This document shows positions 1 through 36,337 of a DNA stretch of 36,337 nucleotides, one piece after another. Position 1 is the first letter of the stretch, and every line of letters starts with the position of its first letter. The DNA comes from a virus. The stretch lies in IMG/VR virus record IMGVR_UViG_3300031224_000002, one strand, 5' to 3'. The notes beneath the pieces were generated by a model. It had not been told where the DNA came from and ran no database searches. It was given only the letters and a program-made list of their open reading frames with translations. The translations under genes were made by a program, and so were the position numbers.

Positions 1-127
1 TCGCCAGCCGCTTCGCCCGTCAGATCGTCAATTGAAATGTCGCCTGCCGCGCCGACGTAAAGAGCGCGGCACGTGCCGAGTGCTAAATCAGTGGAGTCGT
101 TCGGAGTGACTGCGCGAGTTGCGCCGC
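1..127. repeat. Terminal self-overlap, copy 1 (identical to 36211-36337)
   Basis: Compared base by base: nt 1-127 (tcgccagccgcttcgcccgt...tgcgcgagttgcgccgc) recur exactly at the other contig end. The unit length is 36,210 bp. Confidence 0.97.
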
Positions 128-6077: not shown

Positions 6078-6687
6078 TGTTGTTGAGTTGGATTAAGATT
6101 TCACGTTTGATTGAGCGGACGGATTCCGGCTCAAGGGTTTTGTATTCTGGCAACGTCGCGATGCGGATCGCAGTCTGCAGTTGTAGAATCTGGCAGAGCG
6201 GCCAATCGAGAACGCTTTGCGGTGCTTGCCCGTATCGGTGCGCCACTTCGTCAATCGCGCTCACGATTCCCTCGGTCGCCGGAAACTTGTTTGATCGCGA
6301 GACGCCAGAGCCGCCAGTCGATTGCTCAATTGCTAGAGTCTCAAATGCGGCGTTTAAATGCTCTGTGGCGTCGCCATATACTTCAAGCGCGTCCTTAGAC
6401 TCGACTGCTTTCTTAATCGCTTCCTTACGTTGTTTTACGTCGCCACCGATTAAATACTCGGTTGAGTTGCGCCAAATGTAATTTAGCAAGTCATTTACTG
6501 TCAAATCGTCGCCAGTAAAGAGCGCGTTCTTCGCAAGTCGCAAGTCGATCCATGCGCGTGCCGTCAATGGCTTGACTGCGACGCCTGCGATCTCGTCAGC
6601 GTGGCCGACGCTCGACCAAGCAACAAGTCGCGCCTGCGTGATGCGGGCTTTTTCTTCGGCAAGTTGCTGTGCTAGTTCGTCAATCAT
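6064..6687 (-). CDS. Protein in the tail assembly chaperone position
   Basis: A 207-aa ORF between the tail tube candidate and the tape measure, overlapping the tape measure start by 14 nt. I saw no slippery frameshift site. Confidence 0.5.
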   Translation of the reverse strand: MIDELAQQLAEEKARITQARLVAWSSVGHADEIAGVAVKPLTARAWIDLRLAKNALFTGDDLTVNDLLNYIWRNSTEYLIGGDVKQRKEAIKKAVESKDALEVYGDATEHLNAAFETLAIEQSTGGSGVSRSNKFPATEGIVSAIDEVAHRYGQAPQSVLDWPLCQILQLQTAIRIATLPEYKTLEPESVRSIKREILIQLNNNGQS

Positions 6688-6694
6688 TTTGGAT

Positions 6695-6724
6695 AAAAAA
6701 GCCCCGCCCGCACGTGGGCAGGCG
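6695..6724 (-). terminator. Intrinsic terminator candidate
   Basis: Minus-sense sequence: CCUGCCC-acgugc-GGGCGGG(G)C followed by UUUUUU. It lies just after the tube gene and a small ORF, and before the chaperone and tape measure genes. Confidence 0.6.
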
Positions 6725-6751
6725 AGGCTAAACTATGAACCATGAAAAAAA

Positions 6752-6898
6752 TTACTTATCGGCCTTTGGCTTGGTTAGTTTCTCAGCTGCGCCGCGCTCG
6801 ATGAGCCATTCGGCTACGCCGTCAGAAACTTCGACGATATCGCCTTTTTTACAAGGCTCGCCAGCGATGAACTTTGCGCATGTCAGTTTGATTTTCAT
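6752..6898 (-). CDS. Small ORF (48 aa), unknown function
   Basis: Manual translation: MKIKLTCAKFIAGEPCKKGDIVEVSDGVAEWLIERGAAEKLTKPKADK*. It is below the ORF-track cutoff, fills the gap after the tube gene, and is followed by a terminator. Confidence 0.4.
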   Translation of the reverse strand: MKIKLTCAKFIAGEPCKKGDIVEVSDGVAEWLIERGAAEKLTKPKADK

Positions 6899-6902
6899 AT
6901 AA

Positions 6903-7277
6903 TTAGGCTTGGTAAGATACTAAGATCGCGGTCATCTCGAACGTGTCGAATTCGTCTTTGTCGCGAGCTACGGTCACGTCCTTGACAACGAGCGTCGAAG
7001 CTGTGCCGCTGCGGTCGTAGTCGTGAGTGAACTCAGTGCCTACGGGCGGAAGAACGGTCGCAGCCAAAGCGCGTTGCAACGTGTAGCTGACCTCGATTTG
7101 ATCCGAGCCAGCGCGAAGCATGAAGTCAGCGCGGTCGCCATTGGCGTCGGTGCGACTAATTATGCGGTTTTCTTTCGATGCCCCAGATACGGAGTCTGCG
7201 ATGTAAGCGATAGCGTCGATAGTTACGGTTTCAAGCCCTTGACCGAGGCTTGCGGTTGTTGAATATGGAACTGACAT
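6903..7277 (-). CDS. Major tail (tube) protein candidate
   Basis: A 124-aa ORF upstream of the chaperone and tape measure genes, followed downstream by a terminator. It has a G-poor CCAATAACC leader like other high-expression late genes. The call rests on position and size only. Confidence 0.5.
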   Translation of the reverse strand: MSVPYSTTASLGQGLETVTIDAIAYIADSVSGASKENRIISRTDANGDRADFMLRAGSDQIEVSYTLQRALAATVLPPVGTEFTHDYDRSGTASTLVVKDVTVARDKDEFDTFEMTAILVSYQA

Positions 7278-7321
7278 GATTTGAGTTGGTTATTGGTTTG
7301 AGGTTTGTATTCAGATTACAA

Positions 7322-7831
7322 CTACACCCAGGCAGTTGGCAAGATTGAAAATTGAGAGTCAAAGGTCAGCGTCGTCTCGTCGTAGATGCCATCTACTGAA
7401 TGACTTGTGCCGCTTGGCCTAAAAAACTGGATCGCGTAGTATTCGAGATACGTTTCGAGCGCCGAGCCTTTCGCTTGCGATAAGCTCACGACTTGGCGAA
7501 CAAGAGCGACAAGCTCCTGGTGTCTCGATCTTAGCCCCTCTGAAATATCGCCTCCATCATCAAAGCGTTTTGTGCGAACGATGAACTCGAACTCTGCCGC
7601 GTATTGATCGTATTCAGGTTTGTCTCCGCCTGCAGGTGATGGATTGTAGTGGCCAGTCACTGCGCCTGTCGTCATTGTGACGCCCGTATAATCATCAGGG
7701 AGCGTCTCAAACTGAATCGACTGCTCGCACTCGACGAGGTTCTCAGCGAGCCAGAGACGCAGAGCGCCTTCGATGTTTCCTTCAAAGTTGTAAAGTTCGG
7801 CTAGGCTCGCGGCTGGCATATCTGTATCCAT
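7322..7831 (-). CDS. Neck/tail-terminator-position protein
   Basis: The start listed in the ORF track (7855) is a TTG that lies inside a TTGACA hexamer. The first ATG codons are at 7831 and 7819. The function call rests on synteny only. Confidence 0.5.
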   Translation of the reverse strand: MDTDMPAASLAELYNFEGNIEGALRLWLAENLVECEQSIQFETLPDDYTGVTMTTGAVTGHYNPSPAGGDKPEYDQYAAEFEFIVRTKRFDDGGDISEGLRSRHQELVALVRQVVSLSQAKGSALETYLEYYAIQFFRPSGTSHSVDGIYDETTLTFDSQFSILPTAWV

Positions 7832-7855
7832 AAAATGGATACGCTGATTTGTCAA
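7824..7855 (-). promoter_or_regulatory. TTGACA plus GTATCCA-N5-TGGATAC inverted repeat
   Basis: Minus-sense sequence: TTGACAaatcagcGTATCCAttttaTGGATACagatATG. The 7-bp arms are perfect (plus strand 7824-7830 and 7836-7842). Confidence 0.5.
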
Positions 7856-7859
7856 TTCA

Positions 7860-8696
7860 TTATCGAAGCCCAGCTTTACGCGCCGCTTCTGGAGTGAGCT
7901 TCTTCAGTCGCTTCTCCATCAATATCAACCGATTTCGCTTAATCATCGGCAGTAGACGCTGCGCCGACTGTAATCCCGCCGAACTAGCCTTCATTACTGC
8001 ATACCAGGAGCCATTTAGCTTTGCCATTCGACCAGAGCCGCGAGCCGTTCCTCGGTGATTTTTCACCCACTTCGGCACGTTCTTAATTCGCTTCGGATCA
8101 ATCGCTGATGCGGCTTTCGCTGGCGCGGCTTTCGCCATGCCGACGCGATCAGATAGCCGAATAAATACTGAGTCCCAAATCTCTTTCGTTATCCACATTA
8201 CCTTTCGAGACTTCCATCGCCCTATGTCCTTAGAGTTGCCGCCTTTCATTTTTCCTTGCACTCGCCCATCTGATCGGCGCATAGATTCGTGGAAGTCCAG
8301 CGCTTCGCCCACTGAGTCGTAGTTTATGTAATCAACATCCACTAAGTAAGGCACTCCCGCTTTAGTTCTAAGCGTTCGGTTGATATTTCGCTTTGATTTG
8401 GTGACTTTATGTAAAAACTCTAGATAGCCGCGCTCACGGATTCTGAAAATGATTCCCATGTCTGCGATTATCGCGTTTCTACCTGCATCCTTGTCTGCCT
8501 TCGTGCCCATCGTAGCTCGTCCGAATGTCGGAAGTTTGCCCTTTGAGTATGGCGGCGTGAACTTTGCTACGTCGCGCATAAAGAATCCGCCCTGCTCCCG
8601 GACAAACTCCTTTTCGTCAATGTTCATGCGCTTGGCGAGATCGCGAATCTTCTTTTTAAAGATCGCGTCGTCCATCGTGATCATTTTCTTAGCCAT
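7860..8696 (-). CDS. Basic head-completion/neck-position protein
   Basis: A 278-aa Lys/Arg-rich ORF between the adaptor-position gene and the tail genes. Its start overlaps the upstream gene by 8 nt. Confidence 0.5.
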   Translation of the reverse strand: MAKKMITMDDAIFKKKIRDLAKRMNIDEKEFVREQGGFFMRDVAKFTPPYSKGKLPTFGRATMGTKADKDAGRNAIIADMGIIFRIRERGYLEFLHKVTKSKRNINRTLRTKAGVPYLVDVDYINYDSVGEALDFHESMRRSDGRVQGKMKGGNSKDIGRWKSRKVMWITKEIWDSVFIRLSDRVGMAKAAPAKAASAIDPKRIKNVPKWVKNHRGTARGSGRMAKLNGSWYAVMKASSAGLQSAQRLLPMIKRNRLILMEKRLKKLTPEAARKAGLR

Positions 8697-9012
8697 CGCG
8701 CTTAGTTTCGTTCTGCGCCGTCAATTCGACGTTGCCTGTTGACATATTGACTTCAGTAATGATGAAAATTTCGCTGGTATTGATTCGCGTTAGTCGCTGT
8801 GTCTTCTTCGGCGTGACGCTTAGTGCAAGATCCGGAATGACGAGCTTGACTGTCGGTTCAGAACGCTCGCCGTGCTCGGTCAAGTCCCAAGGGTTAATCT
8901 GCTCGTAAAAGATCGCGTTGACGGTCTGACCGCTTGCGAGCTGGATAGGCTCGCCCATGATGTCGGCTGCTTCGCTGTTCGCGTTTTCGAGGAAGGTTTC
9001 AAAGTTGCTCAT
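8689..9012 (-). CDS. Head-tail adaptor-position protein
   Basis: A 107-aa ORF and the first gene after the post-capsid terminator. It is preceded by the 25-nt shared leader. Confidence 0.5.
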   Translation of the reverse strand: MSNFETFLENANSEAADIMGEPIQLASGQTVNAIFYEQINPWDLTEHGERSEPTVKLVIPDLALSVTPKKTQRLTRINTSEIFIITEVNMSTGNVELTAQNETKRDG

Positions 9013-9035
9013 GTTGTATTAGGTTATTGGATACG
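9011..9035 (-). promoter_or_regulatory. 25-nt leader, copy 2 (identical to 157-181)
   Basis: Exact match to 157-181. It ends in the ATG of the 8689-9012 gene. Confidence 0.6.
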
Positions 9036-9053
9036 CGCCGAAAATCAAGACGC

Positions 9054-9631: not shown

Positions 9632-10522
9632 TTAGGCGCTTACGATGCGTTTGATAGCGGCAGGGTTGCCGAGTGCATAGCCGTAATTAATTTCAAGAAC
9701 TCGATTAGTCGTGTCAGTGTCTGGGTTAGTCCACTCGCGATAAACGAGAGTCAAACCGCTGACCGGATCTGTGAACGTCTCGAAGTTGATGACGCCGGAT
9801 GGATCTTCGGGGACGAGAACGCGGGATGCCCAGAGTATAGCGTCAGGGTTAGCAGCGAAGCCGACAAGGTTTTCGCCATTGGCAGGAATCAACGTGGACT
9901 TGAAGCAGTCGAAGCCACCTACGCGAGACACGATGCCGCTCTTGATAGCGCCGTCGCCGCCATATGCAGATGCGTCGTTGATCGACGTGTCCTTGAGCAT
10001 GTTGCCGTAATAAGTCTCCTTTAGTATCAGCGAGCGCATGAACTCAGGCCAATCGGCAGTGTCACAAACAACGCTCAGGTCAATTACATCGTCCGAGTCG
10101 AAATTTGTAGCAAGCGAAGTGAGCCCAGCCGCGCCAAAGTTGGCGGCAGTGATCGGGCTCCAGATGTCTTGCAGGAATGCTTTTGCGAGTTGGTTCGCCT
10201 TGTTGTCGATGAACATTTCGCCAGCTAGCTGGGGATTGTCAGCAAGTTCGGCAGTAGTTAGACCCCAAGAAACGTATTTGCGCTTGTTGATGGTGATGTC
10301 TTTGCCTTCCGCGTTTGCGTCTTGCATGGTATAAGAACCCGCGAAGTCTCCCGCAGCGTCTTGAGACGATACGAATGGAACCTTTACGACTCCACCGCGT
10401 TGCACGGTTTCGTCAGAAAAGTTATTTGAGAAGCGATTCGCGGGGGTAATTTTCGCGACGAAAGCCTCAAAGATACGCTGCGCTAGCAACGTATGGGCCA
10501 TGTTGGTTATTGTGTTAGCCAT
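9632..10522 (-). CDS. Major capsid protein candidate
   Basis: A 296-aa ORF immediately downstream of the protease/scaffold gene, with a G-poor CAAACCAATAAAATCAA leader. The call rests on position and size, with no motif proof. Confidence 0.7.
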   Translation of the reverse strand: MANTITNMAHTLLAQRIFEAFVAKITPANRFSNNFSDETVQRGGVVKVPFVSSQDAAGDFAGSYTMQDANAEGKDITINKRKYVSWGLTTAELADNPQLAGEMFIDNKANQLAKAFLQDIWSPITAANFGAAGLTSLATNFDSDDVIDLSVVCDTADWPEFMRSLILKETYYGNMLKDTSINDASAYGGDGAIKSGIVSRVGGFDCFKSTLIPANGENLVGFAANPDAILWASRVLVPEDPSGVINFETFTDPVSGLTLVYREWTNPDTDTTNRVLEINYGYALGNPAAIKRIVSA

Positions 10523-10547
10523 TTGATTTTATTGGTTTGGTTGTGGA

Positions 10548-11579
10548 TTATCGGTTGGATTTGTTTTCTTTTTGAAGTGTCGCGAGATGCTTTTGACGGA
10601 ACTGATCGCGCTCTTTAGGCGTTTTAAGTTCGCCGTATTGCTCGGTAATACTCTTGCCGCTTGGTGCGCTTTCGTCGTTCTCAGGTTCGGCGATTGCCCC
10701 CTGAGTTTGAAGCCCTACGATCTCAGCGGCTTGAGCTGCGACGGCTTGCGCGGTGACGGCTTCGGCTGCTTCAAGTTCGGCTTTGTGATCTGTATTCATT
10801 TTCTGAATACGATCATTAAAGTCTGTTACTTGATTTTGCAAGTCAGAAATCGTGACGGAGTTTTCAGCGAGTGCGTCGCAGTTGCTTGCGTTTTCATTGT
10901 TGAGTGTTTCAACCTCGGATTTGTGTTTCGATTGCAGACTCGCGACGATCTTTTCAATCGGCAGAGTCGTTTCAGCTTTAGCGGCCACGGCTTGCATGTC
11001 AGCAAGCGACGCTGCGGCTTTCATGCCAGTCTCGATGTGGTCAATGAAGCCAGCTTCGAGTGCTTCGTCAGCAGTCAGCCAAGTCGTATCGTCCATGAGC
11101 GCAGTCAGTTCGTCAGCGTCGTAGTTGCTGCGCCCGTATGCGTTCACGATTGCAGACTTCATCTTGTCCATCAGGTCGGCGTCTTTGCGCAGTTGCTCAG
11201 AGTCTCCGATGCTGACAGTCCAAGGGTTGTGAATCATCAGCAGCGCGTTGTCAGCCATGACGATTTCATCGCCAGCCATTGCGATGACAGATGCCATCGA
11301 AGCGGCGAGGCCGTCAATGTAAACAGTGACGCTTGCTGCGTGACGCTTGAGTGCGTTAAAGATTACGTTGCCTTCGATGATACAGCCACCGGGCGAGTTT
11401 ACGCGGAGGTTGATTGTTTCGACTTCGTTGAGGCTTTCAAGCGACGCGATAAAATCGTTCGCTGTAACGCCCCATCCGCCGATTTCGTCGTAAATATAGA
11501 TTTCGGCGTCAGAAGTCGAATTGCCTTCGGCGTCAGTTTTTTGCTCCATTGCATACCAGTTATTGGGTTGAGTTTTCAT
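10548..11579 (-). CDS. ClpP/S49-type prohead protease fused to a coiled-coil scaffold-like C-terminus
   Basis: The protease-type motifs are AEIYIYDEIGGWG, NSPGGCIIEG and AASMASVIAMAGD. The C-terminal half is Ala/Glu/Gln-rich. I chose the start at MKTQ (11579); the alternatives are 11621 and 11549. Confidence 0.8.
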   Translation of the reverse strand: MKTQPNNWYAMEQKTDAEGNSTSDAEIYIYDEIGGWGVTANDFIASLESLNEVETINLRVNSPGGCIIEGNVIFNALKRHAASVTVYIDGLAASMASVIAMAGDEIVMADNALLMIHNPWTVSIGDSEQLRKDADLMDKMKSAIVNAYGRSNYDADELTALMDDTTWLTADEALEAGFIDHIETGMKAAASLADMQAVAAKAETTLPIEKIVASLQSKHKSEVETLNNENASNCDALAENSVTISDLQNQVTDFNDRIQKMNTDHKAELEAAEAVTAQAVAAQAAEIVGLQTQGAIAEPENDESAPSGKSITEQYGELKTPKERDQFRQKHLATLQKENKSNR

Positions 11580-13503: not shown

Positions 13504-15288
13504 TTACTCAGACTCTCGCCCGACTTCTGACCAATCCACCATTGACTCGGCGAGCGCCACCATGACCTCGCAGTCATAGTAGTGATCGTCGCGATTCGTA
13601 TTGATCCAATCGTGGTAGGTCGAACCGTCTGGACGCGTCTTTACAATCTTCGCCCATGCGTTGATCTGAGCATCGTATTGCGCCCCGGCGTCGTCGGAGT
13701 GCGTCCAAAGCGGCAGGCCTTTGTTGTCTTTCAGGCCTCGAAGTAATGAGAGTTTATTTTTCGCCGATTGCTTCGAGAATTGAATCTGCTTGCAGAACCG
13801 CCGCCCGGCGTTGCCCGTTCCTTCGTCGGCGTCAATGCGCTGCGGCTGATTGTAGATTTGCCGTGATCCGTCAGGCGCTTTGAAATCCTTTGCGGGCTCG
13901 CCGCGCAAGACAATCCAGCCCATCTCGGCAGCGAGTCTTTGCACTTGTGCCGTGTTATAGTTGCCGTCGATAAAGACGCGGCAGCCGGGATAGCCCCACG
14001 GATTCTGAGGAATGTCAAAACGGTTGCACGCTTCCTCAATCTCGTATTCAGTCGATACTCTGCCGCGCTCGATTAAGCGCGATCTCAGCTTGCCGTCGAT
14101 CATTGCGAACTGACGAATCGCGAAATAATAGTGATCTTTTTGAACGTCCACCCCAACGAACATAAGCGACTTCTGCGCGTCCATCAGTTCGCCGAGCTGG
14201 TAGCCTCCCGCAGCTGAGTGTGAAATGTCCGCGCTCATGTAGTCGGCCTCACTCCAAGGCTCGGCCAGCCGCTTGCGGATAAAGTTCTCAAGTGGTTCGA
14301 GGTTGCCGCGCTTCCGGGAAATGTTTGCAAGTTTAAACTGCTCGACGAGCGACGGCCAAGGAATGTGCGCCATCGCATTGTAGTTAAAAAACTCAAATTC
14401 AGCCGAGCCTTTCGGGTTCGTGGCGATGTATTGCCCGGACTCATTGCGCCGCTTCTGCGCTGCGATGCCCGGCTCGTTGCGACCGCCGCAGAGTTGGCAC
14501 TCGTAGAAAACGGAATCCTTGAGCGCGTCCCAGTCGATCACATCCCCGTCCATGTAATCGGCTTTTGCCGCCCATCGCATACCGCCGACCGGGATCGCGT
14601 CACCAATTGCAGGCGCTCGCCAGATGTATGGAATCAACTCGCCGCAGTAGTCACATTTGACGTGCCAGCGCTTTTGCGTCGAGCGTTGCCACATAGCGTC
14701 AAGCTCGCCGCCCTTGGTCTGCCCGGACGAGGGAAGAAACATTTGCCATGACCAAGCGAACGAACTCGTCCGGTCTTTGATCTGGTCTAGCCAGTTTTCG
14801 CCATACGCCCATGACTCGTCTGCGCTCACTCGCTCCAATGTCTTCGAGTTTCGAGAAGCTAGAACATTAGCAGACAGCAGGCGAATCGCGCCGTAGTTCG
14901 TCGATGTATAAAATTTCGTTTTGCGGTAGAGTTGATTTGGAATCAATCGAGTGATCGCTTCGGTCGAATCAATCAGCGGCGTGAACTTGTCATCGCTGAA
15001 CTCTTTAAGTGCAGACTCGGTGAGGTCATACATTGCCGCCCGCGCCGGATCTGTTGCCAGTCCGTAGAGTTGCCAAAGTTGCGCGGTCAGAGTTTTGATG
15101 TGCTGCACCGATCCAATCAAGCCGACATATTTTCCGCGAGTCGTCGCGAGCGTTTCCATCGGCTCACGCATTAGCGGATGATTCGCCATATCGAATGCGC
15201 CGTAGTCAAGCGACGTATTTCGCTCACACCACTTGCGCGGGCTGATCGGTTTGTAGTCTACTAGTTTAATTTTACCTGTGCAATTCAT
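13504..15288 (-). CDS. terL: Terminase large subunit, GpA (lambda) type
   Basis: A 594-aa ORF. It has HPLMREPMETL..VGLIGSVQHIKT near the N-terminus and the Cys pairs VKCDYCGELIPYIW and FYECQLCGG, as I recall for the GpA family. Confidence 0.85.
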   Translation of the reverse strand: MNCTGKIKLVDYKPISPRKWCERNTSLDYGAFDMANHPLMREPMETLATTRGKYVGLIGSVQHIKTLTAQLWQLYGLATDPARAAMYDLTESALKEFSDDKFTPLIDSTEAITRLIPNQLYRKTKFYTSTNYGAIRLLSANVLASRNSKTLERVSADESWAYGENWLDQIKDRTSSFAWSWQMFLPSSGQTKGGELDAMWQRSTQKRWHVKCDYCGELIPYIWRAPAIGDAIPVGGMRWAAKADYMDGDVIDWDALKDSVFYECQLCGGRNEPGIAAQKRRNESGQYIATNPKGSAEFEFFNYNAMAHIPWPSLVEQFKLANISRKRGNLEPLENFIRKRLAEPWSEADYMSADISHSAAGGYQLGELMDAQKSLMFVGVDVQKDHYYFAIRQFAMIDGKLRSRLIERGRVSTEYEIEEACNRFDIPQNPWGYPGCRVFIDGNYNTAQVQRLAAEMGWIVLRGEPAKDFKAPDGSRQIYNQPQRIDADEGTGNAGRRFCKQIQFSKQSAKNKLSLLRGLKDNKGLPLWTHSDDAGAQYDAQINAWAKIVKTRPDGSTYHDWINTNRDDHYYDCEVMVALAESMVDWSEVGRESE

Positions 15289-15879: not shown

Positions 15880-16689
15880 TTATGTCACTTTTATTTCTGT
15901 GGTGTTCTCAAAATAGTTCTCGCCCTCGCTTATCATGCAATCAATCGCCCACTGAGGCAGGTTGACGTCGCTAGGCGATTTCGCGACGGCCTTCATTCCC
16001 TCAAATATTCGACCGCCCAGAACCATTGCGGGCAGCAGATTGTAAACGTCATTCGGCGTCTCGCAGTCAGCGATCACCTCGCAGACTTCTTTCAACTGCT
16101 TGCGCACGCAGGCGTTCCCGGCGTAGACAATCGCTTTGAGTATGCGCTCGACTTCCTTTTTTGTAAGCGTCTCGCCCTTCTGGATTCCTAGCTTCTTCTC
16201 ATCGAGCGCCGTCTCCCTTATTTGCTTGTCAATCTTGAGATAGGCATTTAGCGCAACCTTCTCCCGCTCGCTATTCCCGTTCGCCTTCGCTATCTGTAAC
16301 TCGGCCAAATACTCATCGCGCAACTCATCCGGGGATTTCGTGTCAGACTCGGCTTTATAAATCTCCGCCTTTATGTCGTTTTTCTTCTCGTAGGCCTTCA
16401 CCCACTTGACGCACATATTCTTTGCCTTAAGTCCCTCGTAGCAAAGCGCGTCATCTTGGTCGAACTTGACCCCCGCCTTTTTTGCCCGGTGGATCGTCGA
16501 ACGCTGGACTTTGAATTCATCCGCCAACTCCAGGTCGGTCTTGTCTGGGCGCATCCCATCTCTCTCCCGCTCGGCGTTGTCCAGAGTCTTAGTTTCCGCC
16601 GACGTCAGCGGCCTGCCCGCTTTGACCTTCGCAACGATGTTCGCGAGGTTCTTTTTACGGATCGCGTCGAATGGATTTTTATCAATCAT
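15880..16689 (-). CDS. Terminase small subunit candidate (HTH-containing)
   Basis: A 269-aa ORF with an HTH-like segment LADEFKVQRSTIHRAKKAG and a charged helical remainder. It lies upstream of terL, separated from it by two small genes. The assignment is positional. Confidence 0.45.
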   Translation of the reverse strand: MIDKNPFDAIRKKNLANIVAKVKAGRPLTSAETKTLDNAERERDGMRPDKTDLELADEFKVQRSTIHRAKKAGVKFDQDDALCYEGLKAKNMCVKWVKAYEKKNDIKAEIYKAESDTKSPDELRDEYLAELQIAKANGNSEREKVALNAYLKIDKQIRETALDEKKLGIQKGETLTKKEVERILKAIVYAGNACVRKQLKEVCEVIADCETPNDVYNLLPAMVLGGRIFEGMKAVAKSPSDVNLPQWAIDCMISEGENYFENTTEIKVT

Positions 16690-16775: not shown

Positions 16776-17579
16776 TTAGTCTTTTCCATTTGCCTTGATT
16801 AGCTTGTTGTTTTTAAACTTTCTAAAGTTGCAAGAATGCTGATACCTTCCCCAGCGTTTATTTATTTTACATACGTCTGGATGCTGGTCTCTTAGGCTTT
16901 TTGCCATCGCATAGCGCCCATCAAATTGTGAATCTTGCTGATAAAGCTGGTCTGTGTTTCCGCCTTTCATTGTCATCGTCGCCGACTTGTCGCAGAGCAG
17001 GCCATTAAATAACATAGTGCAATAGCCCTGCTTTAGAAATCTGATCGAAAGATCAGTGTCTTCATTATATCGGCCTCGCCACCTGGTCGAGACTTTGTTT
17101 GAAAGTAACATGCATGAGTAAACTCTGGTGTTCATCGTGACAGGCAGCTTGGCCGCTCCCTGTGCCGTCGATGAGTTAGTCACAGCAAAGCCCGTGTATT
17201 GCATCCCCGCCATCGGCACATTGACAAATCTAGAGACAAACTTTTCTATTAAGTCAAAGTTAGAGCGGTCCAGAACTGCCACTCGTTTTTTGTTTTTAAG
17301 GATGCGAAAGCCAGAAATATTATCGTCAAGAATCCAGTGTGAGGCGTGACCCTCTTGAATCGAGTGCTCCCACACCCAATTACGCGCCGGTATTCCACCA
17401 AGTCCAAGGTTTGAAAATGGCAAGGTTAGTATCTTTGACGGCTCAATGACAGAGGAGTAATCCGCAAATTCTTGCGGCTCTATCACAATGCGATAAGAAA
17501 CGCCCATAAGCTCCAGGGCTTTAGATGTGAGCCGCGATTCGTGCCGACCTTTTGAAATAATGTAAATTGGTGTAGTCAT
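16776..17579 (-). CDS. Glycosyltransferase-like protein (GT-A/TET-associated-GT-like candidate)
   Basis: A 267-aa ORF taken from the ATG at 17579; the track start at 17603 is a TTG. It has an N-terminal PIYIISKGR strand-loop and a WILDDN acidic motif, as in GT-A DxD enzymes. The resemblance to the TAGT family is from memory only. Confidence 0.45.
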   Translation of the reverse strand: MTTPIYIISKGRHESRLTSKALELMGVSYRIVIEPQEFADYSSVIEPSKILTLPFSNLGLGGIPARNWVWEHSIQEGHASHWILDDNISGFRILKNKKRVAVLDRSNFDLIEKFVSRFVNVPMAGMQYTGFAVTNSSTAQGAAKLPVTMNTRVYSCMLLSNKVSTRWRGRYNEDTDLSIRFLKQGYCTMLFNGLLCDKSATMTMKGGNTDQLYQQDSQFDGRYAMAKSLRDQHPDVCKINKRWGRYQHSCNFRKFKNNKLIKANGKD

Positions 17580-18169
17580 TATGGCTTGGAGGGATACCAG
17601 CAAAACTTAACGTTGTCGGTAATTTTAATGTCAAGCGCCTTCGCGAAACTTGCGCGGCTTTCAGGGTTTGTAAAATGAACTATGATGGTTCCATAACCTT
17701 CCGGAGATCCATCATAGTCGGGCATTTTAGAATTACTCCACTCTTTACTAAGATCAGCCTCTTCGGTCGCAAGGATCGCATCAATCCTCGCTTGGTCAAA
17801 ACCGAGCAAGCTAATGTCAAAATCTTCCGCCTCCAGTTTGGCAATCTCAGCAGCCAGCATTTCCTCGTCCCACTCGATGCCGTAGTCTGCCAGCTTGTTG
17901 TCAGCGATCACGTAAGCGGCCTTCTCGGTTTCGCTGAGTCCGTCGATCACGATGCAAGGGATTTCCTTGAGACCCATTTGCACGGCAGCAACTGAGCGGC
18001 CATGCCCAGCAAGTATCATCCCCGCTTCGTCGATCAGCACTGGGGCGGTAAAACCGAAGCGTTTGATGCTCGCAACAATCTTGTCGATCTGGTCTGCGCT
18101 GTGCTTTTTGGCGTTTCCCGCGTATGGTATCAACGTATCTGTTTTGATTGATATTATTTTATGTTGCAT
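17579..18169 (-). CDS. ParB-like N-terminal (nuclease/NTP-binding) domain protein
   Basis: A 196-aa ORF with a ParB/Srx-type core: LIPYAGNAKKH...RFGFTAPVLIDEAGMILAGHGRSVAA. Its stop overlaps the next ATG (TAATG). Confidence 0.8.
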   Translation of the reverse strand: MQHKIISIKTDTLIPYAGNAKKHSADQIDKIVASIKRFGFTAPVLIDEAGMILAGHGRSVAAVQMGLKEIPCIVIDGLSETEKAAYVIADNKLADYGIEWDEEMLAAEIAKLEAEDFDISLLGFDQARIDAILATEEADLSKEWSNSKMPDYDGSPEGYGTIIVHFTNPESRASFAKALDIKITDNVKFCWYPSKP

Positions 18170-18228: not shown

Positions 18229-18468
18229 CTATGGTGAAAAAGATTCCTTGCCAGCCCCCCTCGCCCTCGCCAGCCCCCCCCCTCGCCAGCCCCCCCTCGC
18301 CAGCCCCCCCCTCGCCAGAGAATCCACCGCCTCGACCATCACAGCGGTTTTGCTGATGCCGTTGGCCGTCGCCAGTCCGTCAAGTTGTTTGATTGTCTCG
18401 TGCGGTAGCCGGAGCGATATCATGCGCCGCTTCTCGGTGATTCGTTTCTGTGATGCTTTTGTTTCCAT
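18229..18468 (-). CDS. Ribbon-helix-helix (CopG/Arc-like) DNA-binding protein with a repeat-encoded tail
   Basis: Taken from the ATG at 18468: METKASQKRITEKRRMISLRLPHETIKQLDGLATANGISKTAVMVEAVDSL, which reads as strand, helix, helix. This is followed by LARGGLARGGWRGGGLARARGAG encoded by the G-tract array. The track start at 18555 is a TTG that spans the operators. Confidence 0.7.
   Translation of the reverse strand: METKASQKRITEKRRMISLRLPHETIKQLDGLATANGISKTAVMVEAVDSLARGGLARGGWRGGGLARARGAGKESFSP
18251..18318 (-). repeat. Tandem CTGGCGA-Gn array (G8, G7, G9, G3, G6 on the minus strand)
   Basis: Counted on the plus strand: ccag-C6-tcgccc-tcgccag-C9-tcgccag-C7-tcgccag-C8-tcgccag. The unit lengths are 16, 14 and 15 nt. 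Confidence 0.95.
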
Positions 18469-18476
18469 GTCGTTGA

Positions 18477-18544
18477 TCAATACGTTGAGTGTGAGATTGT
18501 CAATACTCTGTATTAATACGTTGAGCGTTGAGTCAATACGTTGA
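18477..18544 (-). promoter_or_regulatory. Operator/promoter cluster of the RHH gene
   Basis: On the minus strand there are three boxes: TCAACGTATTGA (18544-18533), TCAACGTATTAA (18524-18513) and TCAACGTATTGA (18488-18477). GTATTGACA sits between them, with TTGACA at 18503-18498. The ATG at 18468 lies only about 9 nt from the last box. Confidence 0.6.
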
Positions 18545-18577
18545 CATGAGATCAAGTCTCATAAATACGTTTTTTCA

Positions 18578-20847: not shown

Positions 20848-21189
20848 TTAGTCTTTTACCTCAAAGTGAATCTCCAGTCTCGGCCGCTCACGATCAATCT
20901 CGAATCGAACGCCATCAAAGCCCCACTCGCTGTCGTCTTGCTGACAGCAATCAGCGACGCCGTCGAGATACGCCTTGCAGCTTGCCGAGGCGTTGTCGCG
21001 GTCATGTCTCCGCGTGTCTTTCCACAAGAAGACGAGCCGATAGCTTGCGAACTTCTGAATGCCGACCTGCCTGAACGTCTCGCGCTTCGCCATAGCCCGC
21101 GCGAGCTTCTTAGCCTTTGCGAGCTTGGCCCAATGCACGCGAGCGTTCGGTGACAGCGTTCGGTCTGGTAGCGGGAGGGTTATGGTCAT
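20848..21189 (-). CDS. rusA: RusA-like Holliday junction resolvase
   Basis: A 113-aa ORF with LPLPDRTLSPNARVHW at the N-terminus and RRHDRDNASASCKAYLDGVAD acidic motifs, typical of RusA. Confidence 0.75.
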   Translation of the reverse strand: MTITLPLPDRTLSPNARVHWAKLAKAKKLARAMAKRETFRQVGIQKFASYRLVFLWKDTRRHDRDNASASCKAYLDGVADCCQQDDSEWGFDGVRFEIDRERPRLEIHFEVKD

Positions 21190-21887
21190 AGTTCTTCGTT
21201 CCCCCTCGCTCGCTTCGCATCTGTGGCGTTCGCCTCAAGGCTCAAAGTCGTCTGGCTAGTCTCACGTTCCACTCTTTCGCATCCAGCTTTGAAGTAGTCC
21301 TTGTCTAACTCTGAGCCTGTGAGGTGTATTCCAGCGTAATGTGCTGAGATTGCGCTACTCATTGAGCCTAGATGCGTATCTAAGACCTTCATGCCCTTCT
21401 CTGCGTAGTTGGCGAAAATCCAGTCGTATAGCTTTACGGGCTTCTGAGTTGGGTGGATTTTTTTATCATAACCCGCACTAAAATGGTGCATGCTAAAACG
21501 TCTAGCTGGCTTATCAAAGCTAGACCATGCTAATTCAAAATCTGACATGTCGTTAGTCCCATTCATTTTATCCCAGCTTAATAGGCTTTTAGTGTTACTT
21601 AAAAAATCAAAAAAATAGTTAGCACCCCATATTATTTGATGATTGCTAACCCTGAAAAGTTCTTTAAAATAAATTTCGTTTGGGGTTTCTCTATCCCAGT
21701 TCTTGTGTTTGTCTTTGGTTAGGCTACCAAATCCACTTTGCTTATTTATATTTATCCCATAAGGCGGATCAACCACGCAAATATCGTAGTAGTTATCAGG
21801 GGTTTGTTTGAGTAGCTCCATGCAATCGCAGTTATATAGCGCGAGTGAATCCGTCTTGTGTGGTGTTCCTAGGTTTTTATAGTTCAT
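21186..21887 (-). CDS. DNA methyltransferase (N6A/N4C, beta-class), paralog 2
   Basis: A 233-aa ORF. It has DPPYGI (motif IV) near the N-terminus, and HPTQKPVKLY...VLDTHLGSMSSAISA (AdoMet motif I) near the C-terminus. The 5' half is conspicuously AT-rich. Confidence 0.9.
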   Translation of the reverse strand: MNYKNLGTPHKTDSLALYNCDCMELLKQTPDNYYDICVVDPPYGININKQSGFGSLTKDKHKNWDRETPNEIYFKELFRVSNHQIIWGANYFFDFLSNTKSLLSWDKMNGTNDMSDFELAWSSFDKPARRFSMHHFSAGYDKKIHPTQKPVKLYDWIFANYAEKGMKVLDTHLGSMSSAISAHYAGIHLTGSELDKDYFKAGCERVERETSQTTLSLEANATDAKRARGNEEL

Positions 21888-21910: not shown

Positions 21911-22666
21911 TCATGATTTTCGCTGGTCGGTATCTATGCTAAGGACGTTCGCCTCAAGATTCAAAGTCGTTTGGCTAGTCTCACGTTCTATCCGTTTACA
22001 AGCCGCTAGGAAGTAGTCCTCATCGAGTTCGCAAGCTGTCAGGTGCATCCCCGCGTAATGAGCCGCTATCGCTATGCTTCCGCTTCCCATGTGGGTGTCT
22101 AATACCTTCATCCCATTCTCGGCGTAGTTTTCGAAGATCCAGTCGTATAATTTGACGGGCTTTTGGGTGGGGTGGATGCGTGATTCTTTATTTTTCATAT
22201 CACCCTGCCTCATACCCATCCATGCGAAAGTGAACATCCTCAAAGCTCTGTTGAATGAAGTGTAGGCAAGCTCACCATCTGAGAAATCTCCAGACGCTTC
22301 TTTATTCCAGAATATCCACCCCATACTACTTTGGAAGTGTTGAGGGTAATAGTTCGCGCCCCAAACAATTTGATTTTTTGATACTCGCTGCAGCTCTTTG
22401 AAATATTCACTAGTCGGCGCTGACCCGTCCCAGTCTTTAACTGTATAATCTCCAGCCATTGCGCAAGTCCCCATCCCTCTGCTTTTCTTGCCTTCACCTA
22501 TCCCATAAGGCGGATCAACAACCGCAAGGTCAAAGTGATTGTCTGGATAACTTGCCATCAACTCCATGCAATCCATCCTCTTTAAATCCAAGAAAGGAGA
22601 ACAAGGCGATGATGCCAAGCCCGTTGGGGCTGGTGGCGGAATCGGGGCTGTAGGGCGGGCTGGCAT
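21911..22666 (-). CDS. DNA methyltransferase (N6A/N4C, beta-class), paralog 1
   Basis: A 251-aa ORF with DPPYGI, HPTQKPVKLYDWIFENYAENGMKVLDTHMGSGSIAIAA and a Pro-rich N-terminal extension. Confidence 0.9.
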   Translation of the reverse strand: MPARPTAPIPPPAPTGLASSPCSPFLDLKRMDCMELMASYPDNHFDLAVVDPPYGIGEGKKSRGMGTCAMAGDYTVKDWDGSAPTSEYFKELQRVSKNQIVWGANYYPQHFQSSMGWIFWNKEASGDFSDGELAYTSFNRALRMFTFAWMGMRQGDMKNKESRIHPTQKPVKLYDWIFENYAENGMKVLDTHMGSGSIAIAAHYAGMHLTACELDEDYFLAACKRIERETSQTTLNLEANVLSIDTDQRKS

Positions 22667-22668
22667 AT

Positions 22669-23214
22669 CTAGGCGTTCGACAAAGAAATTACCGCAGCCA
22701 CGATTTCGCGCGGGGAGACGCCATCGCCTAGCAGCCCGACTGCATCTCGGATTTCTTGCAAGGCCCGGATCAATGCCAATTTCTCAGCCTTGTCCATCGT
22801 CTCGCACATCTTCTCTCGCTCAAGCAGCCGCTGATTCTCGCGCTCAAATTTACACCCCTCAAGGTAGGTTGACTGCATAGACGTTTGAACCGCTGAGTCC
22901 ATTATTGGAGTTTCTGTGATTTTCATAAAATTATCGAACCATTCAGTGCTACGAATGTATCGAAAAGCTGTTTCGTGCCGTGTTTCATTCGGCCATTTTT
23001 GAGATACGGCATAAATCAAATCATAGTATTTTGCCTCCAATTGTTCAATTTCGTCTGCGGCTTTTACCATGAGTTCATCGGTCGCGATTTCGTCCACAGT
23101 GGACATTTCTCCGCAGTCGCCAGACCAACGTCGCGGAGTTTGAATTGCGCCCTCGCGTAGTCGCTCAACTAGAGTCGATTTTACATTGTCGGCGTTCCGC
23201 TCGCCATTATCCAT
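22669..23214 (-). CDS. Hypothetical protein (181 aa)
   Basis: A long ORF with ATG at 23214. Its stop lies 2 nt before the methyltransferase start. I recognise no motif. Confidence 0.6.
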   Translation of the reverse strand: MDNGERNADNVKSTLVERLREGAIQTPRRWSGDCGEMSTVDEIATDELMVKAADEIEQLEAKYYDLIYAVSQKWPNETRHETAFRYIRSTEWFDNFMKITETPIMDSAVQTSMQSTYLEGCKFERENQRLLEREKMCETMDKAEKLALIRALQEIRDAVGLLGDGVSPREIVAAVISLSNA

Positions 23215-26698: not shown

Positions 26699-27277
26699 TT
26701 AATCGTCTGAGTTTTGATTGTATTTATCCCAAGCGAGCCAGCAGTCTTCGCAGAGGACTTCTTTGCTTGGCTCGATTGGCTTATTGCAGTCTTGGCATAA
26801 TGCCCATGGCTTCTGTAGATTGAAAAATCCAAGCGCCCCTTTGCATGGCGTGAATGGAAGCGGACGGGCGTTCTTTAGCAAAAAGCCGTAATCACCCATA
26901 AACCAATTGGAGTCGGAACTATCCACGCAATCAACTATTTCGGCCACACCGACAACGCCGCCCCGTTGCAACTCGGACAGTTTCGGCAGGTTGTTGACCC
27001 CGCAATATTGGATGGCGAAAAATTTAGCATCATCGTATTCATCGCGGGTGCAGCCCTTCCCGGCGTGAACTAAAAAGCGACCTCGAAAGTTTGTCTTCCA
27101 GCTACGATTCTCTATGTCTTTGCCAGCATTGACAATGAGCCATGCCCAAGGCTGTCTGATCGAGAGCGCGGGCAGTTTCGGCAAGTCCAAAACAGAACCA
27201 GCCGGAGCAGGACAGTCCAGCTCGCGCTCGGTTATTTGAGGCATTTCATCCTCTAGTAGATTCATTTGTTTTTCCAT
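26699..27277 (-). CDS. ASCH (PUA-like) domain protein with a C-terminal Cys-rich tail
   Basis: LSIRQPWAWLIVNAGKDIENRSWKTNFRGRFLVHAG is a typical ASCH N-terminus. The tail is CQDCNKPIEPSKEVLCEDC. I placed the start at MEKQ (27277); the track start at 27334 is a GTG inside the promoter-like element. Confidence 0.7.
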   Translation of the reverse strand: MEKQMNLLEDEMPQITERELDCPAPAGSVLDLPKLPALSIRQPWAWLIVNAGKDIENRSWKTNFRGRFLVHAGKGCTRDEYDDAKFFAIQYCGVNNLPKLSELQRGGVVGVAEIVDCVDSSDSNWFMGDYGFLLKNARPLPFTPCKGALGFFNLQKPWALCQDCNKPIEPSKEVLCEDCWLAWDKYNQNSDD

Positions 27278-27322
27278 AGTTTTAGTATTTCGTTCGTCAC
27301 GTTTGTCGCTTCGATGACAAGG

Positions 27323-27356
27323 AAAGTAGCGCACCGAATACCCTTGTCAATACGTT
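27323..27356 (-). promoter_or_regulatory. Promoter-like site A (AACGTATTGACAAGGG-N12-TACTTT)
   Basis: On the minus strand, TTGACA is at 27350-27345, followed by a 16-nt spacer and TACTTT at 27328-27323. The 16-mer AACGTATTGACAAGGG is identical to site B. Confidence 0.55.
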
Positions 27357-32531: not shown

Positions 32532-32981
32532 TTAAGGCTTCGCCGCCCCTTGGCCAAAGTAGAAGGCGATGACGTGACCGAATCCAACAAGCAGAGTCGG
32601 CATGTGAACGAAGCCTTGCACGCTGACAAACTCCGTTCGTGTGCGTTCAGGTATCAAACCGAATAGAAAACCGCCCGAAGTTTTGACTGTCTCGATCACG
32701 CTTGGCTTATCTAAGAAGCCAGGCACAAATACCAGAGCGACGACTGCGCCGACGAGAATCAGCGCGACAAGTCGCCGCGTTGCTTTGCCCGTTGATCCGT
32801 CGCGCTTAGATGCGCGGTCTGATGCTTCCATCGTCTCACCCATGCCGACTTTGAAGGCGTCGAGAGTGTAGAGTCGTTCTTCGGATTGCCGAGCCGCCTC
32901 TAGCGCCTTGAGCTTCATGATAAAACCAGCGACGGCAGAGACGCCCATCGTGACAGCAGGATTTGTTAGTAATTCGATCAT
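32532..32981 (-). CDS. Membrane protein (holin-like by position)
   Basis: Taken from the ATG at 32981, which is preceded by GAAAGGAATAATCAA; the track start at 33005 is a GTG. The hydrophobic segments are VTMGVSAVAGFIM, LVALILVGAVVALVFVPGF and MPTLLVGFGHVIAFYFG. Confidence 0.55.
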   Translation of the reverse strand: MIELLTNPAVTMGVSAVAGFIMKLKALEAARQSEERLYTLDAFKVGMGETMEASDRASKRDGSTGKATRRLVALILVGAVVALVFVPGFLDKPSVIETVKTSGGFLFGLIPERTRTEFVSVQGFVHMPTLLVGFGHVIAFYFGQGAAKP

Positions 32982-33030
32982 TTGATTATTCCTTTCGATT
33001 TCCACTTTTTAAACTGTGACTTTACTATCA

Positions 33031-36103: not shown

Positions 36104-36104
36104 G

Positions 36105-36337
36105 CTAGTAAAGCGCGACGATGGACGTTGCAGTGGTTCCGGTCGCATTGACGCGAGCCGTTTGCACTGGCAGAATCGAGCCGGCAGTGACGCCGACAAA
36201 TACGACTGATTCGCCAGCCGCTTCGCCCGTCAGATCGTCAATTGAAATGTCGCCTGCCGCGCCGACGTAAAGAGCGCGGCACGTGCCGAGTGCTAAATCA
36301 GTGGAGTCGTTCGGAGTGACTGCGCGAGTTGCGCCGC
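36105..36337 (-). CDS. 3' part of the 86-aa spike-base-like gene (same gene as 1-155, seen through the overlap)
   Basis: The reading frame from the ATG at 155 continues through position 36211 (equivalent to nt 1) to the TAG at 36107-36105. Confidence 0.6.
   Translation of the reverse strand, partial: GATRAVTPNDSTDLALGTCRALYVGAAGDISIDDLTGEAAGESVVFVGVTAGSILPVQTARVNATGTTATSIVALY
36211..36337. repeat. Terminal self-overlap, copy 2 (identical to 1-127)
   Basis: See copy 1. Confidence 0.97.

Follow-up and report, generated by a model that had tools for sequence, protein, structure and literature searches.

What would a phage glycosylate with an enzyme whose usual acceptor it has no evident means of making, and why should the gene of that enzyme overlap the gene of a ParB-like protein? 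The question is raised by IMG/VR virus record IMGVR_UViG_3300031224_000002, a DNA of 36,337 nt that was analysed whole and is referred to here as the window. In it, a 196-aa ParB-like protein and a 267-aa member of the TET-associated glycosyltransferase (TAGT) family are encoded by overlapping genes that precede the terminase genes (Table 1). We propose, with a probability of roughly 0.6, that the pair is one unit: a DNA glycosyltransferase split in two, assisted by ParB and expressed together with the packaging genes. A domain of about 60 residues at the end of the ParB-like protein accompanies this TAGT clade almost everywhere.

Two overlapping genes and a TAGT-associated mini-domain

The two genes meet at CCA TAATG ACT, where an A of the TAA stop codon doubles as the A of the following ATG, producing a 1-nt overlap at position 17579; they are translationally coupled. 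The upstream product includes MILAGHGRSVAA and ends in ..VKFCWYPSKP, whereas the downstream one has the N-terminus MTTPIYIISKGR and the motif HWILDDN. Checked against the list of open reading frames (ORFs) and the sequence, the coordinates, lengths, motifs and TAATG overlap given for this pair in the first-pass annotation were all correct.

The 267-aa protein matches the Pfam family PF20691 (TAGT) over its full length, residues 3-207 aligning with positions 1-205 of the 205-position profile (E 7e-39; 134.3 bits, the family cut-off being 27.5). A second match is to PHROG 842, 'beta-glucosyl-HMC-alpha-glucosyltransferase' (E 2e-34). Its homologues number over 8000, the closest non-identical ones being 73-76% identical; sequence search returned no relative of known structure, and the TAGT of T2/T6 is absent from its tblastn matches at E <= 1e-10. 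Motifs conserved in the clade are SKGR (10-12), HWI.DDNI (D85, D86), WRG.YNEDTDLS (E172, D173, D175) and GGNT. In an alignment of 93 clade sequences, the window protein included, R12 of SKGR, D85-D86-N87 and E172-D173-T174-D175 are at least 90% conserved. The active-site motifs of phage GT-A DNA glycosyltransferases have been given as R ... DDD ... EDY/F (Pyle et al., 10.1101/2023.12.21.572611); at the third position of the latter two, the window protein reads DDN for DDD and EDT for EDY/F, as far as sequence alone allows such motifs to be equated. The ORF had been described as glycosyltransferase-like and as resembling the TET-associated family. Profile searches did return a glycosyltransferase family, at full length, and by this measure the protein is a bona fide TAGT-family member.

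For the 196-aa protein, the Pfam ParB_N score (24.8 bits) lies just below the cut-off of 26.3, while ParB-like PHROG families 620, 498 and 15396 are matched at E values from 1e-51 (PHROG 620) to 2e-44. A profile of 121 homologues run against the PDB retrieved Noc (E 4e-8), ParB and Spo0J, down to E 1e-5. The AlphaFold2 (AF2) model has a predicted local distance difference test score (pLDDT) above 90 for residues 1-133, and its best Foldseek matches in the PDB, down to E 1e-5, are Noc (7nfu, E 2e-7), CDP-bound ParB (6sdk) and KorB (8qa9). The ParB/Srx-type N-domain noticed at first reading was thus recovered by family profile, PDB profile and structure comparison alike. Across the 121 aligned sequences (A2), its P-motif GHGR (G55, H56, R58) and N91 do not vary; the nucleotide-binding P- and N-motifs are therefore conserved, and binding of a nucleoside triphosphate (NTP) is predicted. 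Past residue 133, where a partition ParB has other domains, there is an acidic linker followed by the short domain discussed below. The AF2 model contains no helix-turn-helix (HTH) or parS-binding domain, and no ParA-type ATPase was found among the Pfam-scanned ORFs of the genome. We considered a partition ParB of a ParABS system and rejected it, since the central HTH parS-binding domain, the C-terminal dimerisation domain and ParA are all missing.

The tail that follows the linker, hereafter the mini-domain, has the consensus EWxGMPEFxQE..I.VHF...D..FA.L.GQ..T.KTK.IW.P; in its alignment (A1), P18 and P61 are invariant and W12, M17, F34, F43 and W59 are at least 90% conserved. Initial iterative profile searches merged ParB and TAGT into one family, because real fusion proteins exist, and the searches were redone with domain-level hidden Markov models (HMMs) built on 80 IMG/VR loci with TAGT homologues (50-70% identity), the other loci studied and the window. 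The mini-domain adjoins TAGT or is fused with it in 78 of 84 viral (IMG/VR-type) loci and in 72 of 80 genomic loci, the latter being an independent set from bacterial and archaeal genome assemblies. As in the window, it may form the C-terminus of a ParB_N protein encoded directly upstream of TAGT (35/84 viral, 36/80 genomic), so that the co-occurrence of the two gene families, proposed as a check of the module, is evident in both sets. Alternatively, it is a stand-alone ORF, of 75-152 aa in the viral set (28/84 and 23/80), or is fused to the N-terminus of TAGT (14/84 and 12/80), and each set has one single ParB_N-mini-TAGT polypeptide (1/84, L016, 515 aa; 1/80). No mini-domain was found in 6/84 viral loci, four of them with TAGT at the contig edge, and in 8/80 genomic loci. 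Stop and start overlap or nearly abut in 33 of the 35 loci with a ParB_N-mini protein and in 21 of 29 with a stand-alone mini-domain. Since the juxtaposition recurs across independent loci with a conserved overlap, the pairing of the ParB-like and TAGT genes is far beyond chance. The tail of the ParB-like protein is a conserved TAGT-specific domain, and the mini-domain is a near-universal constant partner of this TAGT clade.

Searches from the mini-domain side point the same way. Its profile retrieves 509 proteins at E <= 0.001, the best 120 of which are 68-118 aa long and have no Pfam domain; around stand-alone mini-domain proteins, TAGT was the next, overlapping gene in all three contexts examined. 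A HMMER search (A3) of 1.84 billion representatives gave 30,585 matches at E <= 1e-3, a number that is not mini-domain-specific because the profile had picked up ParB_N columns, and only the architectures of its top hits were used. The mini-domain corresponds to no Pfam family and matches only PHROG 22103, weakly, a family of unknown function. Its region has low confidence in the AF2 model of the whole ParB-like protein; modelled alone (131 sequences), it reaches pLDDT 77 with two short helices and no sheet, and this model had zero Foldseek matches in the PDB. Among cultured phages, fused mini-TAGT proteins occur in Aeromonas phage 65, Tenacibaculum phage PTm1 and the Vibrio phages 1.076.O, henriette and Kuja, the last of which, one of the Ackermannviridae, carries two in tandem; tblastn with a mini-domain sequence matched only the TAGT of PTm1.

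Is this tail shared by other ParB-like modification proteins? At maximum HMM sensitivity, the mini-domain is absent from three ParB-N6/N4-methylase fusions, and ParBs paired with a Mom or TET gene gave no match to its profile, the TET-linked ParBs of locus L003 included. Separately, the Mom-linked ParB tails of loci L004 and L005 show a weak MPEL-strand-helix likeness to its first half. These results modify the initial view that a ..F..W(Y/F)P linker precedes the methylase domain in ParB-methylase fusions. The supposed generic linker is a TAGT-linked domain of about 60 aa, and its presence in ParB-N6/N4-methylase fusions had to be rejected given the three negative cases. The claim did stand for some fusions, in which the motif precedes methyltransferase domains of another type: ParB_N-mini proteins extended by an FkbM-type (Methyltransf_21) or Methyltransf_23/11 domain (P0429, P0448, P0468, P0474, P0477). 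There, TAGT directly follows in both retrievable contexts, those of P0448 and P0474 (L181 1-2195; L182 93-1909), which suggests methylated sugars or a second modification step.

Other fusions and neighbours enlarge the picture. A single 1210-aa ORF (L076, 4184-7813) joins the mini-domain and TAGT to a family-A DNA polymerase (Pfam DNA_pol_A, E 2e-22; PDB 7pbk, E 7e-14). In L046 (9638-11275) and L065 (9286-11019), mini-TAGT proteins carry a C-terminal domain resembling the uracil-DNA glycosylase (UDG) superfamily, with GQAPG and HPSG motifs recognised by eye; the Pfam matches are below threshold (22.8 and 16.5 bits) and the C-termini gave no PDB sequence match, so the assignment is tentative. 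A UDG-like domain, if real, would point to a flipped-out pyrimidine as the target. Six loci have an NAD-dependent sugar epimerase/dehydratase gene directly downstream of TAGT (e.g. L028, 4571-5497): some carriers apparently tailor the donor sugar, and the window phage does not. Tandem TAGT duplicates are frequent.

The pre-terminase slot and the acceptor

The closest cultured-phage matches to residues 1-132 of the ParB-like protein are the N-domains of ParB-N6/N4-methylase fusions, namely those of Verrucomicrobia phage P8625 (57% identity), Psychrobacter phage pOW20-A (55%) and Streptococcus Javan phages (50%), and each of these fusions sits just upstream of terminase genes. The N6/N4 methylase fusion was seen in the 3 records examined, 419 cultured-phage records matching the N-domain; in metagenomes, homologues of the full-length protein are short ParBs that stand alone. 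In loci L004 and L005, a ParB is followed by a Mom-family gene (PF25680) and then by terS-like, TerL and portal genes; the overlapping ParB_N-Mom pairs lie at 10001-11342 and 49-1382, respectively, and we did not find a ParB-Mom pairing described in the literature cited here. A further arrangement, in L003, runs ParB, Tet_JBP, a second ParB that is 44% identical to the window protein, and a weak TAGT-like protein.

The window, L005 and P8625 are syntenic relatives by their TerL (55-58% identity), TerS-like (46-56%) and portal (62%) proteins; for the window and P8625, the values are 58% for TerL and 56% for the TerS-like protein, and the ParB_N domains of L005 and P8625 share 86% identity. Among the three, only the enzyme behind ParB_N differs. 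Since they are true relatives, the ParB_N slot of one phage lineage holds a methylase, a Mom or a TAGT. The idea that a glycosyltransferase has taken the usual position of a methylase is borne out by P8625, with its fusion in the same slot. From these sequence comparisons, the slot before terS-terL is a swappable cassette, whose methylase and Mom occupants are predicted to modify DNA bases, and the N-domain of the window protein is best placed in a DNA-modification subfamily of ParB_N.

A relative of this N-domain is also found in the Rac element of E. coli: the Pseudescherichia ParB_N matches ynaK, annotated as a 'ParB/Srx family N-terminal domain-containing protein', in 1521 of the 5426 complete genomes of that species (e.g. 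NZ_CP122620.1, 2094748-2095107). The similarity is confined to ParB_N, and no TAGT module accompanies ynaK in the E. coli genomes.

If the enzyme acts on DNA, what is its acceptor? When all ORFs of at least 97 aa were compared with Pfam, the unassigned ones also at E <= 10, no Tet_JBP, thymidylate-synthase-family protein or sugar-nucleotide enzyme came to light, nor did the complete 36.2-kb genome yield a kinase or a primary alpha- or beta-glycosyltransferase. Searches with jackhmmer and phmmer seeded with T4 gp42, E. coli ThyA and phage TET proteins found no match in the six-frame translation. The lack of a TET/JBP, hydroxymethylase or sugar-nucleotide gene, suspected from the start, therefore holds, and 'no hydroxylase partner' is valid for the whole genome because the window is a complete genome of which all ORFs of that size were scanned.

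The window is not alone in this. No TET or ThyA-family gene is present in the whole record of Vibrio phage 1.076.O, or within +/-8 kb of the loci in Pantoea stewartii ATCC 8199, Erwinia sp., Pseudescherichia vulneris, Acidobacteriaceae KBS 96 and Chryseobacterium daeguense. A fused mini-TAGT is found in 12 records of T4-like Aeromonas phages (65, Aeh1, phiAS5, Ah1 and others); of the 48 Aeromonas records with a gp42/ThyA-family homologue, 47 are listed and include no TAGT carrier, and at least 11 of the 12 carriers must therefore lack a dCMP hydroxymethylase. TET proteins were detected with Pfam in the window and with narrow seeds elsewhere, because a scan with the TET of L003 returned only 3 near-identical loci. 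On the sequences at hand, the absence of an acceptor-making enzyme is general for this clade, in agreement with published counts of solitary GT-A/TAGT genes: about 65% of glycosyltransferase contigs lack 5mYOX or ThyS (Pyle et al., 10.1101/2023.12.21.572611), TAGT is solitary in 288 of 753 phage genomes (PMC13216743), and most phage GT-A/TAGT genes are solitary and of unknown function (10.1101/2023.12.21.572611; PMC13216743). One carrier, L089, shows a different neighbourhood: in a T4-like replication context (6001-9049), a mini-domain ORF and two tandem TAGTs are followed by DUF3310 and then by a 2OG-FeII_Oxy_3 (PF13640) oxygenase. This 2-oxoglutarate (2OG) enzyme, which is not of the TET family, could be an alternative hydroxylase in some carriers.

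A proposed mechanism and its alternatives

How might the two proteins work together? The catalytic part is the TAGT-family GT-A enzyme. Its mini-domain, instead of residing on TAGT itself or on a small ORF, is carried at the C-terminus of a ParB-CTPase-fold protein as the accessory part, and the window pair would be a fission form of a single ParB_N-mini-TAGT protein. The stop/start overlap would ensure stoichiometric co-synthesis, and docking of the mini-domain on TAGT would tether the ParB N-domain to the enzyme. ParB_N, probably in an NTP-dependent manner, may then engage or open duplex DNA, or hold the enzyme there, exposing bases; this role is suggested by analogy with the ParB-like activators of thymine dioxygenases on double-stranded DNA and with the ParB-methylase fusions. 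TAGT would move a hexose from a host UDP-sugar onto phage DNA, late in infection and just before packaging. The module appears to be co-expressed with terS-terL, as no terminator-like site separates them on the coding strand in a scan for promoters and terminators whose matches were at chance level. The likely benefit would be protection against restriction or other DNA-targeting defences. With neither a TET/JBP dioxygenase nor a ThyA-type hydroxymethylase in the complete genome, the acceptor could be either a hydroxymethyl-pyrimidine supplied by some activity that escaped recognition or a base for which no precursor of this kind is required. The DNA-directed modification that the first-pass annotation had considered possible is favoured, at the level of gene pairings and fusions, by the ParB-Mom and ParB-TET pairs and by the TAGT-PolA and TAGT-UDG-like proteins.

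Several points weigh against a ParB-assisted DNA glycosyltransferase. Tet_JBP, ThyA-like proteins and kinases are all missing from the complete genome, and the 8-10 kb flanks of 160 related loci, searched with narrow TET seeds, contain a TET gene in only two cases (L026, L166) and a ThyA-family gene in none, which leaves the canonical TAGT substrate unaccounted for. DNA glycosylation by this clade is a prediction from its sequences, and the family has one protein-modifying member: GREB1 is reported to O-GlcNAcylate a protein (PMC7968844). Many loci place the module beside head and packaging genes, and in Vibrio phage 1.076.O it lies between portal and head-morphogenesis genes, which would fit glycosylation of a virion protein as well. 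Moreover, the mini-domain does without a ParB_N in about 40% of loci, which makes ParB an optional add-on that is not essential to catalysis. Finally, the contact between mini-domain and TAGT is deduced, the AF2 model of the isolated mini-domain being only moderately confident.

The two options for the acceptor are variants within the preferred reading, and the likelihoods that we attach to them overlap with its own. According to the first, the acceptor is classical 5-hydroxymethyluracil or 5-hydroxymethylcytosine (5hmC), made by a dioxygenase or hydroxymethylase that is too divergent to be recognised or is encoded by the host, and the novelty is confined to the ParB tether. For every TAGT/JGT relative characterised so far, the substrate is a hydroxymethyl-pyrimidine or a sugar borne on one (PMC13216743; 10.1101/2023.12.21.572611), and thousands of 5mYOX-like contigs are missed by Pfam Tet_JBP (O'Toole et al., PMC13229309). 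The ParB-TET-ParB-TAGT-like order of L003, the TET genes near mini-TAGT in L026 and L166, and the two mini-TAGT genes of the Ackermannviridae phage Kuja also speak for such an acceptor. Set against this, the genome's ORFs of at least 150 aa all have an assignment or belong to the structural module, and none yields so much as a faint sign of a 2OG oxygenase or ThyA at E <= 10; the same absence extends to the whole record of Vibrio phage 1.076.O, to the prophage loci of cultured bacteria and to at least 11 of the 12 T4-like Aeromonas mini-TAGT records, which have no gp42/ThyA homologue. On balance, we consider this variant rather unlikely.

The second variant dispenses with the hydroxymethyl-pyrimidine: the clade would attach its sugar directly to a base of double-stranded DNA, canonical or at most methylated, with help from the mini-domain and, in loci that have it, from the ParB NTPase domain, following a logic like that of the Mom and methylase enzymes found in the same slot. 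The clade is an orphan in small siphovirus-like genomes, in prophage-like bacterial loci and in at least 11 of 12 T4-like Aeromonas records. GT-A enzymes can form N-glycosidic bonds, as the NleB/SseK arginine GlcNAc-transferases do. We put this idea forward tentatively, as a doubtful one. If it is true, it would represent a post-replicative sugar modification of a chemically new kind.

A more distant explanation is that TAGT glycosylates a protein, be it of the capsid, portal, tail or host, or an envelope polymer, with ParB serving in packaging or as a scaffold; glycosylation of virion proteins had been raised at the outset as the alternative to a DNA target. The placement of the module is what lends it some appeal: terS, terL and portal genes adjoin it in many loci, TerL starts at most 4 kb downstream in 22 of 60 evaluable ones, and the position in Vibrio phage 1.076.O is between structural genes. 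GREB1 offers a precedent, and TarP and the PBCV-1 capsid glycosyltransferase are structural neighbours of the phage GT-A enzymes (Pyle et al., 10.1101/2023.12.21.572611). However, methylases and Mom occupy the same pre-terminase slot, so that a structural target does not follow from position. Apart from TAGT, the ParB_N subfamily is partnered only with modifiers of DNA bases (N6/N4 methylase, Mom, thymine dioxygenase), TAGT shares a polypeptide with DNA polymerase A or with UDG-like domains in some loci, and the T4-like contexts of L089 and henriette place the module by the clamp loader, gp45 and UvsW. A protein target thus seems improbable to us.

Strongly disfavoured is the view that the adjacency is meaningless, ParB being an independent partition, nuclease or regulatory gene and TAGT a stray or decaying moron without substrate: the want of an evident acceptor pathway and the frequency of ParB-like genes before terminase genes in many phages without a glycosyltransferase would suit it, but co-occurrence in about 150 of 164 independent loci, fusions in both directions, the conserved stop/start overlap, putative catalytic motifs conserved in 93 clade members including the window, and a ParB protein without an HTH or parS-binding domain in a genome without ParA all contradict it.

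Genomic setting and comparison with known systems

Table 1. Coordinates of the gene pair, its domains and neighbouring features in the window
Feature	Position	Strand	Evidence
ParB-like gene, 196 aa (ParB_N domain and mini-domain)	17579..18169	minus	ORF list and sequence; ORF 18169..17582, stop 17581-17579
ParB-CTPase-fold N-domain and short helical extension, residues 1-133	17771..18169	minus	AF2, Foldseek, profile against PDB
TAGT-associated mini-domain, residues ~134-196, ..EWSNSKMPDYDGSPEGYGTIIVHFTNPESRASFAKALDIKITDNVKFCWYPSKP	17582..17770	minus	Local domain HMM, E 1e-20
TAATG stop/start overlap, translational coupling of ParB-like and TAGT genes	17577..17581	minus	Sequence
TAGT-family GT-A glycosyltransferase gene, 267 aa	16776..17579	minus	ATG at 17579, stop 16778-16776
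Small-terminase-like gene, 269 aa, directly downstream of TAGT	15880..16689	minus	Homologues in the same position in L005 and P8625
Large terminase gene, GpA type	13504..15288	minus	Pfam GpA_ATPase E 3e-25, GpA_nuclease E 1e-11
Two tandem paralogous N6/N4 DNA methyltransferase genes	21186-21887, 21911-22666	minus	Pfam N6_N4_Mtase E 2e-8, 2e-14
Terminal direct repeat	1..127 = 36211-36337		Exact string comparison

The first and last 127 bases of the window are identical, and it is therefore a complete circular genome, 36,210 bp long when the repeat is counted once; an exact terminal repeat of this kind is typical of a circular assembly overlap. The genome has 50.8% GC and every gene is on the minus strand. 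The gene order begins with a tail-fibre-like protein of 788 aa, YqaJ exonuclease, AAA_24, DUF669, a helicase, an ASCH protein and small ORFs; it continues with an unknown 181-aa protein, the two methylases, RusA, a primase-helicase and a ribbon-helix-helix (RHH) protein, and ends with ParB, TAGT, the TerS-like protein, TerL, portal, ClpP protease and the head and tail genes. Unassigned parts are the 181-aa protein (22669-23214), ORFs of 157 aa (32532-33005) and 177 aa (7322-7855), and the C-terminal half of the 422-aa YqaJ protein. The TerS-like protein has no match in Pfam, and its L005 homologue shows weak HTH and Phage_terminase matches. Megablast of the 10 kb around the locus against GenBank phages gave no match: in DNA sequence, no cultured phage is closely related to the window.

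The pair of methyltransferases noticed some 4 kb away is real: both enzymes have the DPPY motif, are encoded 3-4.5 kb upstream of the module and are very similar in their C-terminal halves. We treat them as context, their link to TAGT being only putative. Three other genes deserve mention. Just upstream of ParB, the 108-aa RHH protein (18229-18555, minus) contains a low-complexity GGLARGGWRGGGLARARGAG stretch, whose coding DNA repeats a G/C-rich motif (GCCAGCCCCCC...), an unusual feature in a CopG-like regulator. The Gly/Ser/Thr-rich 788-aa protein (33833-36199, minus) has no Pfam or PHROG match and, by composition and position, is probably a tail fibre or receptor-binding protein. The ASCH (PUA-like) domain protein (26699-27334, minus) ends in a zinc-ribbon-like CxxC...CxxC tail; in archaea, fusions of ASCH domains with ParB folds are on record (PMC12704722).

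Genomes of cultured bacteria also contain ParB_N-mini and TAGT genes (L139, L140, L174, L177, L178, and L142 7328-11481 of Pantoea stewartii ATCC 8199), and in L142 the two immediately precede terS and terL. Cultured carriers such as Vibrio phages 1.076.O and 1.124.O, P. stewartii ATCC 8199 and the Erwinia, Pseudescherichia and Chryseobacterium type-strain genomes make the proposal testable; prophages of Chryseobacterium daeguense DSM 19388 and C. gambrini DSM 18014 are also among the carriers. The locus and its relatives give the problem of the solitary TAGT a concrete shape, with an obligate partner of 60 residues that has no annotation, its frequent delivery by a ParB of the subfamily that also works with DNA methylases, Mom and thymine dioxygenases, and a cassette that related phages swap at one slot before the terminase genes. 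If the target is DNA, it may reveal a sugar modification that needs no hydroxymethyl precursor, with a bearing on restriction and CRISPR evasion, on the specificity of type IV restriction and on enzymatic DNA labelling.

How much of this has been anticipated? TAGT was reportedly defined by Iyer et al. in 2013 (NAR). The idea that ParB directs modification during packaging is traced to the same authors (Iyer et al. 2013, as cited in PMC8256090), and a survey of the ParB fold lists methylase fusions and no link to glycosyltransferases (PMC12704722). The TAGT GT-A enzyme and the ParB-CTPase fold are thus already known, and ParB-assisted modification was published in 2025-26 for dioxygenases. What we did not find described in the cited literature is the TAGT-specific mini-domain, its near-universal coupling to the clade and the delivery by ParB_N, the exchange of methylase, Mom and TAGT in one phage lineage, and the consistent lack of an acceptor-making enzyme.

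The nearest known counterparts of the enzyme itself, the TAGT of T2/T6 and, distantly, the trypanosome JGT, glycosylate DNA (PMC13216743; 10.1101/2023.12.21.572611). The window protein resembles the T2/T6 enzyme and the TAGTs of 5mYOX clusters in its full-length Pfam match, its membership of PHROG 842, its phage origin and its putative GT-A-type motifs (the SKGR arginine, DD(N) and NEDTD). In contrast to those systems, the window has no TET/JBP, C5-methylase, ThyA-type hydroxymethylase, or alpha- or beta-glycosyltransferase for the known acceptors. Its clade differs further by the 60-aa mini-domain, N-terminal or encoded in trans, and by DDN/EDT in place of DDD/EDY/F.

The T4 alpha-glucosyltransferase works with the replisome clamp gp45 (PMC13216743) and is alike in concept, a DNA glycosyltransferase being brought to its substrate by a DNA-tracking accessory protein; its fold, however, is GT-B, its accessory protein is a different one, and its acceptor 5hmC is known and made before replication. 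The ParB_N-N6/N4 fusions (P8625 gp03, pOW20-A, Javan105) share with the window the N-domain, at 50-57% identity over 132 aa, and the slot upstream of terS-terL. In them, the methylase comes right after an acidic linker, with no mini-domain, whereas the window ParB has no methylase domain and its effector would be a separate, coupled glycosyltransferase engaged through the mini-domain. Mom of phage Mu acts on canonical adenine, which it carbamoylmethylates at N6. The Mom-family genes of L004 and L005 take the exact position of TAGT, after a homologous ParB_N and before terS-terL, and both kinds of cassette would modify DNA late, ahead of packaging, although enzyme fold and chemistry differ.

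A close parallel to the proposed mechanism comes from experiments in which one subclass of phage thymine dioxygenases depended on ParB-like proteins of this architecture, specifically when the DNA was double-stranded (O'Toole et al., PNAS 2026, PMC13229309). In both cases, a short protein of ParB-CTPase fold without HTH, ending in a C-terminal partnership domain, is encoded beside a post-replicative DNA modifier, putative in the window, and the L003 cluster unites a homologue of the window ParB with TET and a TAGT-like protein. The window differs in that the partner is a glycosyltransferase and not a dioxygenase, no 5mYOX is encoded in the genome, and the C-terminal domain is another, TAGT-specific one; activation of TAGT by ParB is suggested by analogy only. 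If the target is indeed DNA, the principle that ParB activates DNA modification would be extended from dioxygenases to glycosyltransferases.

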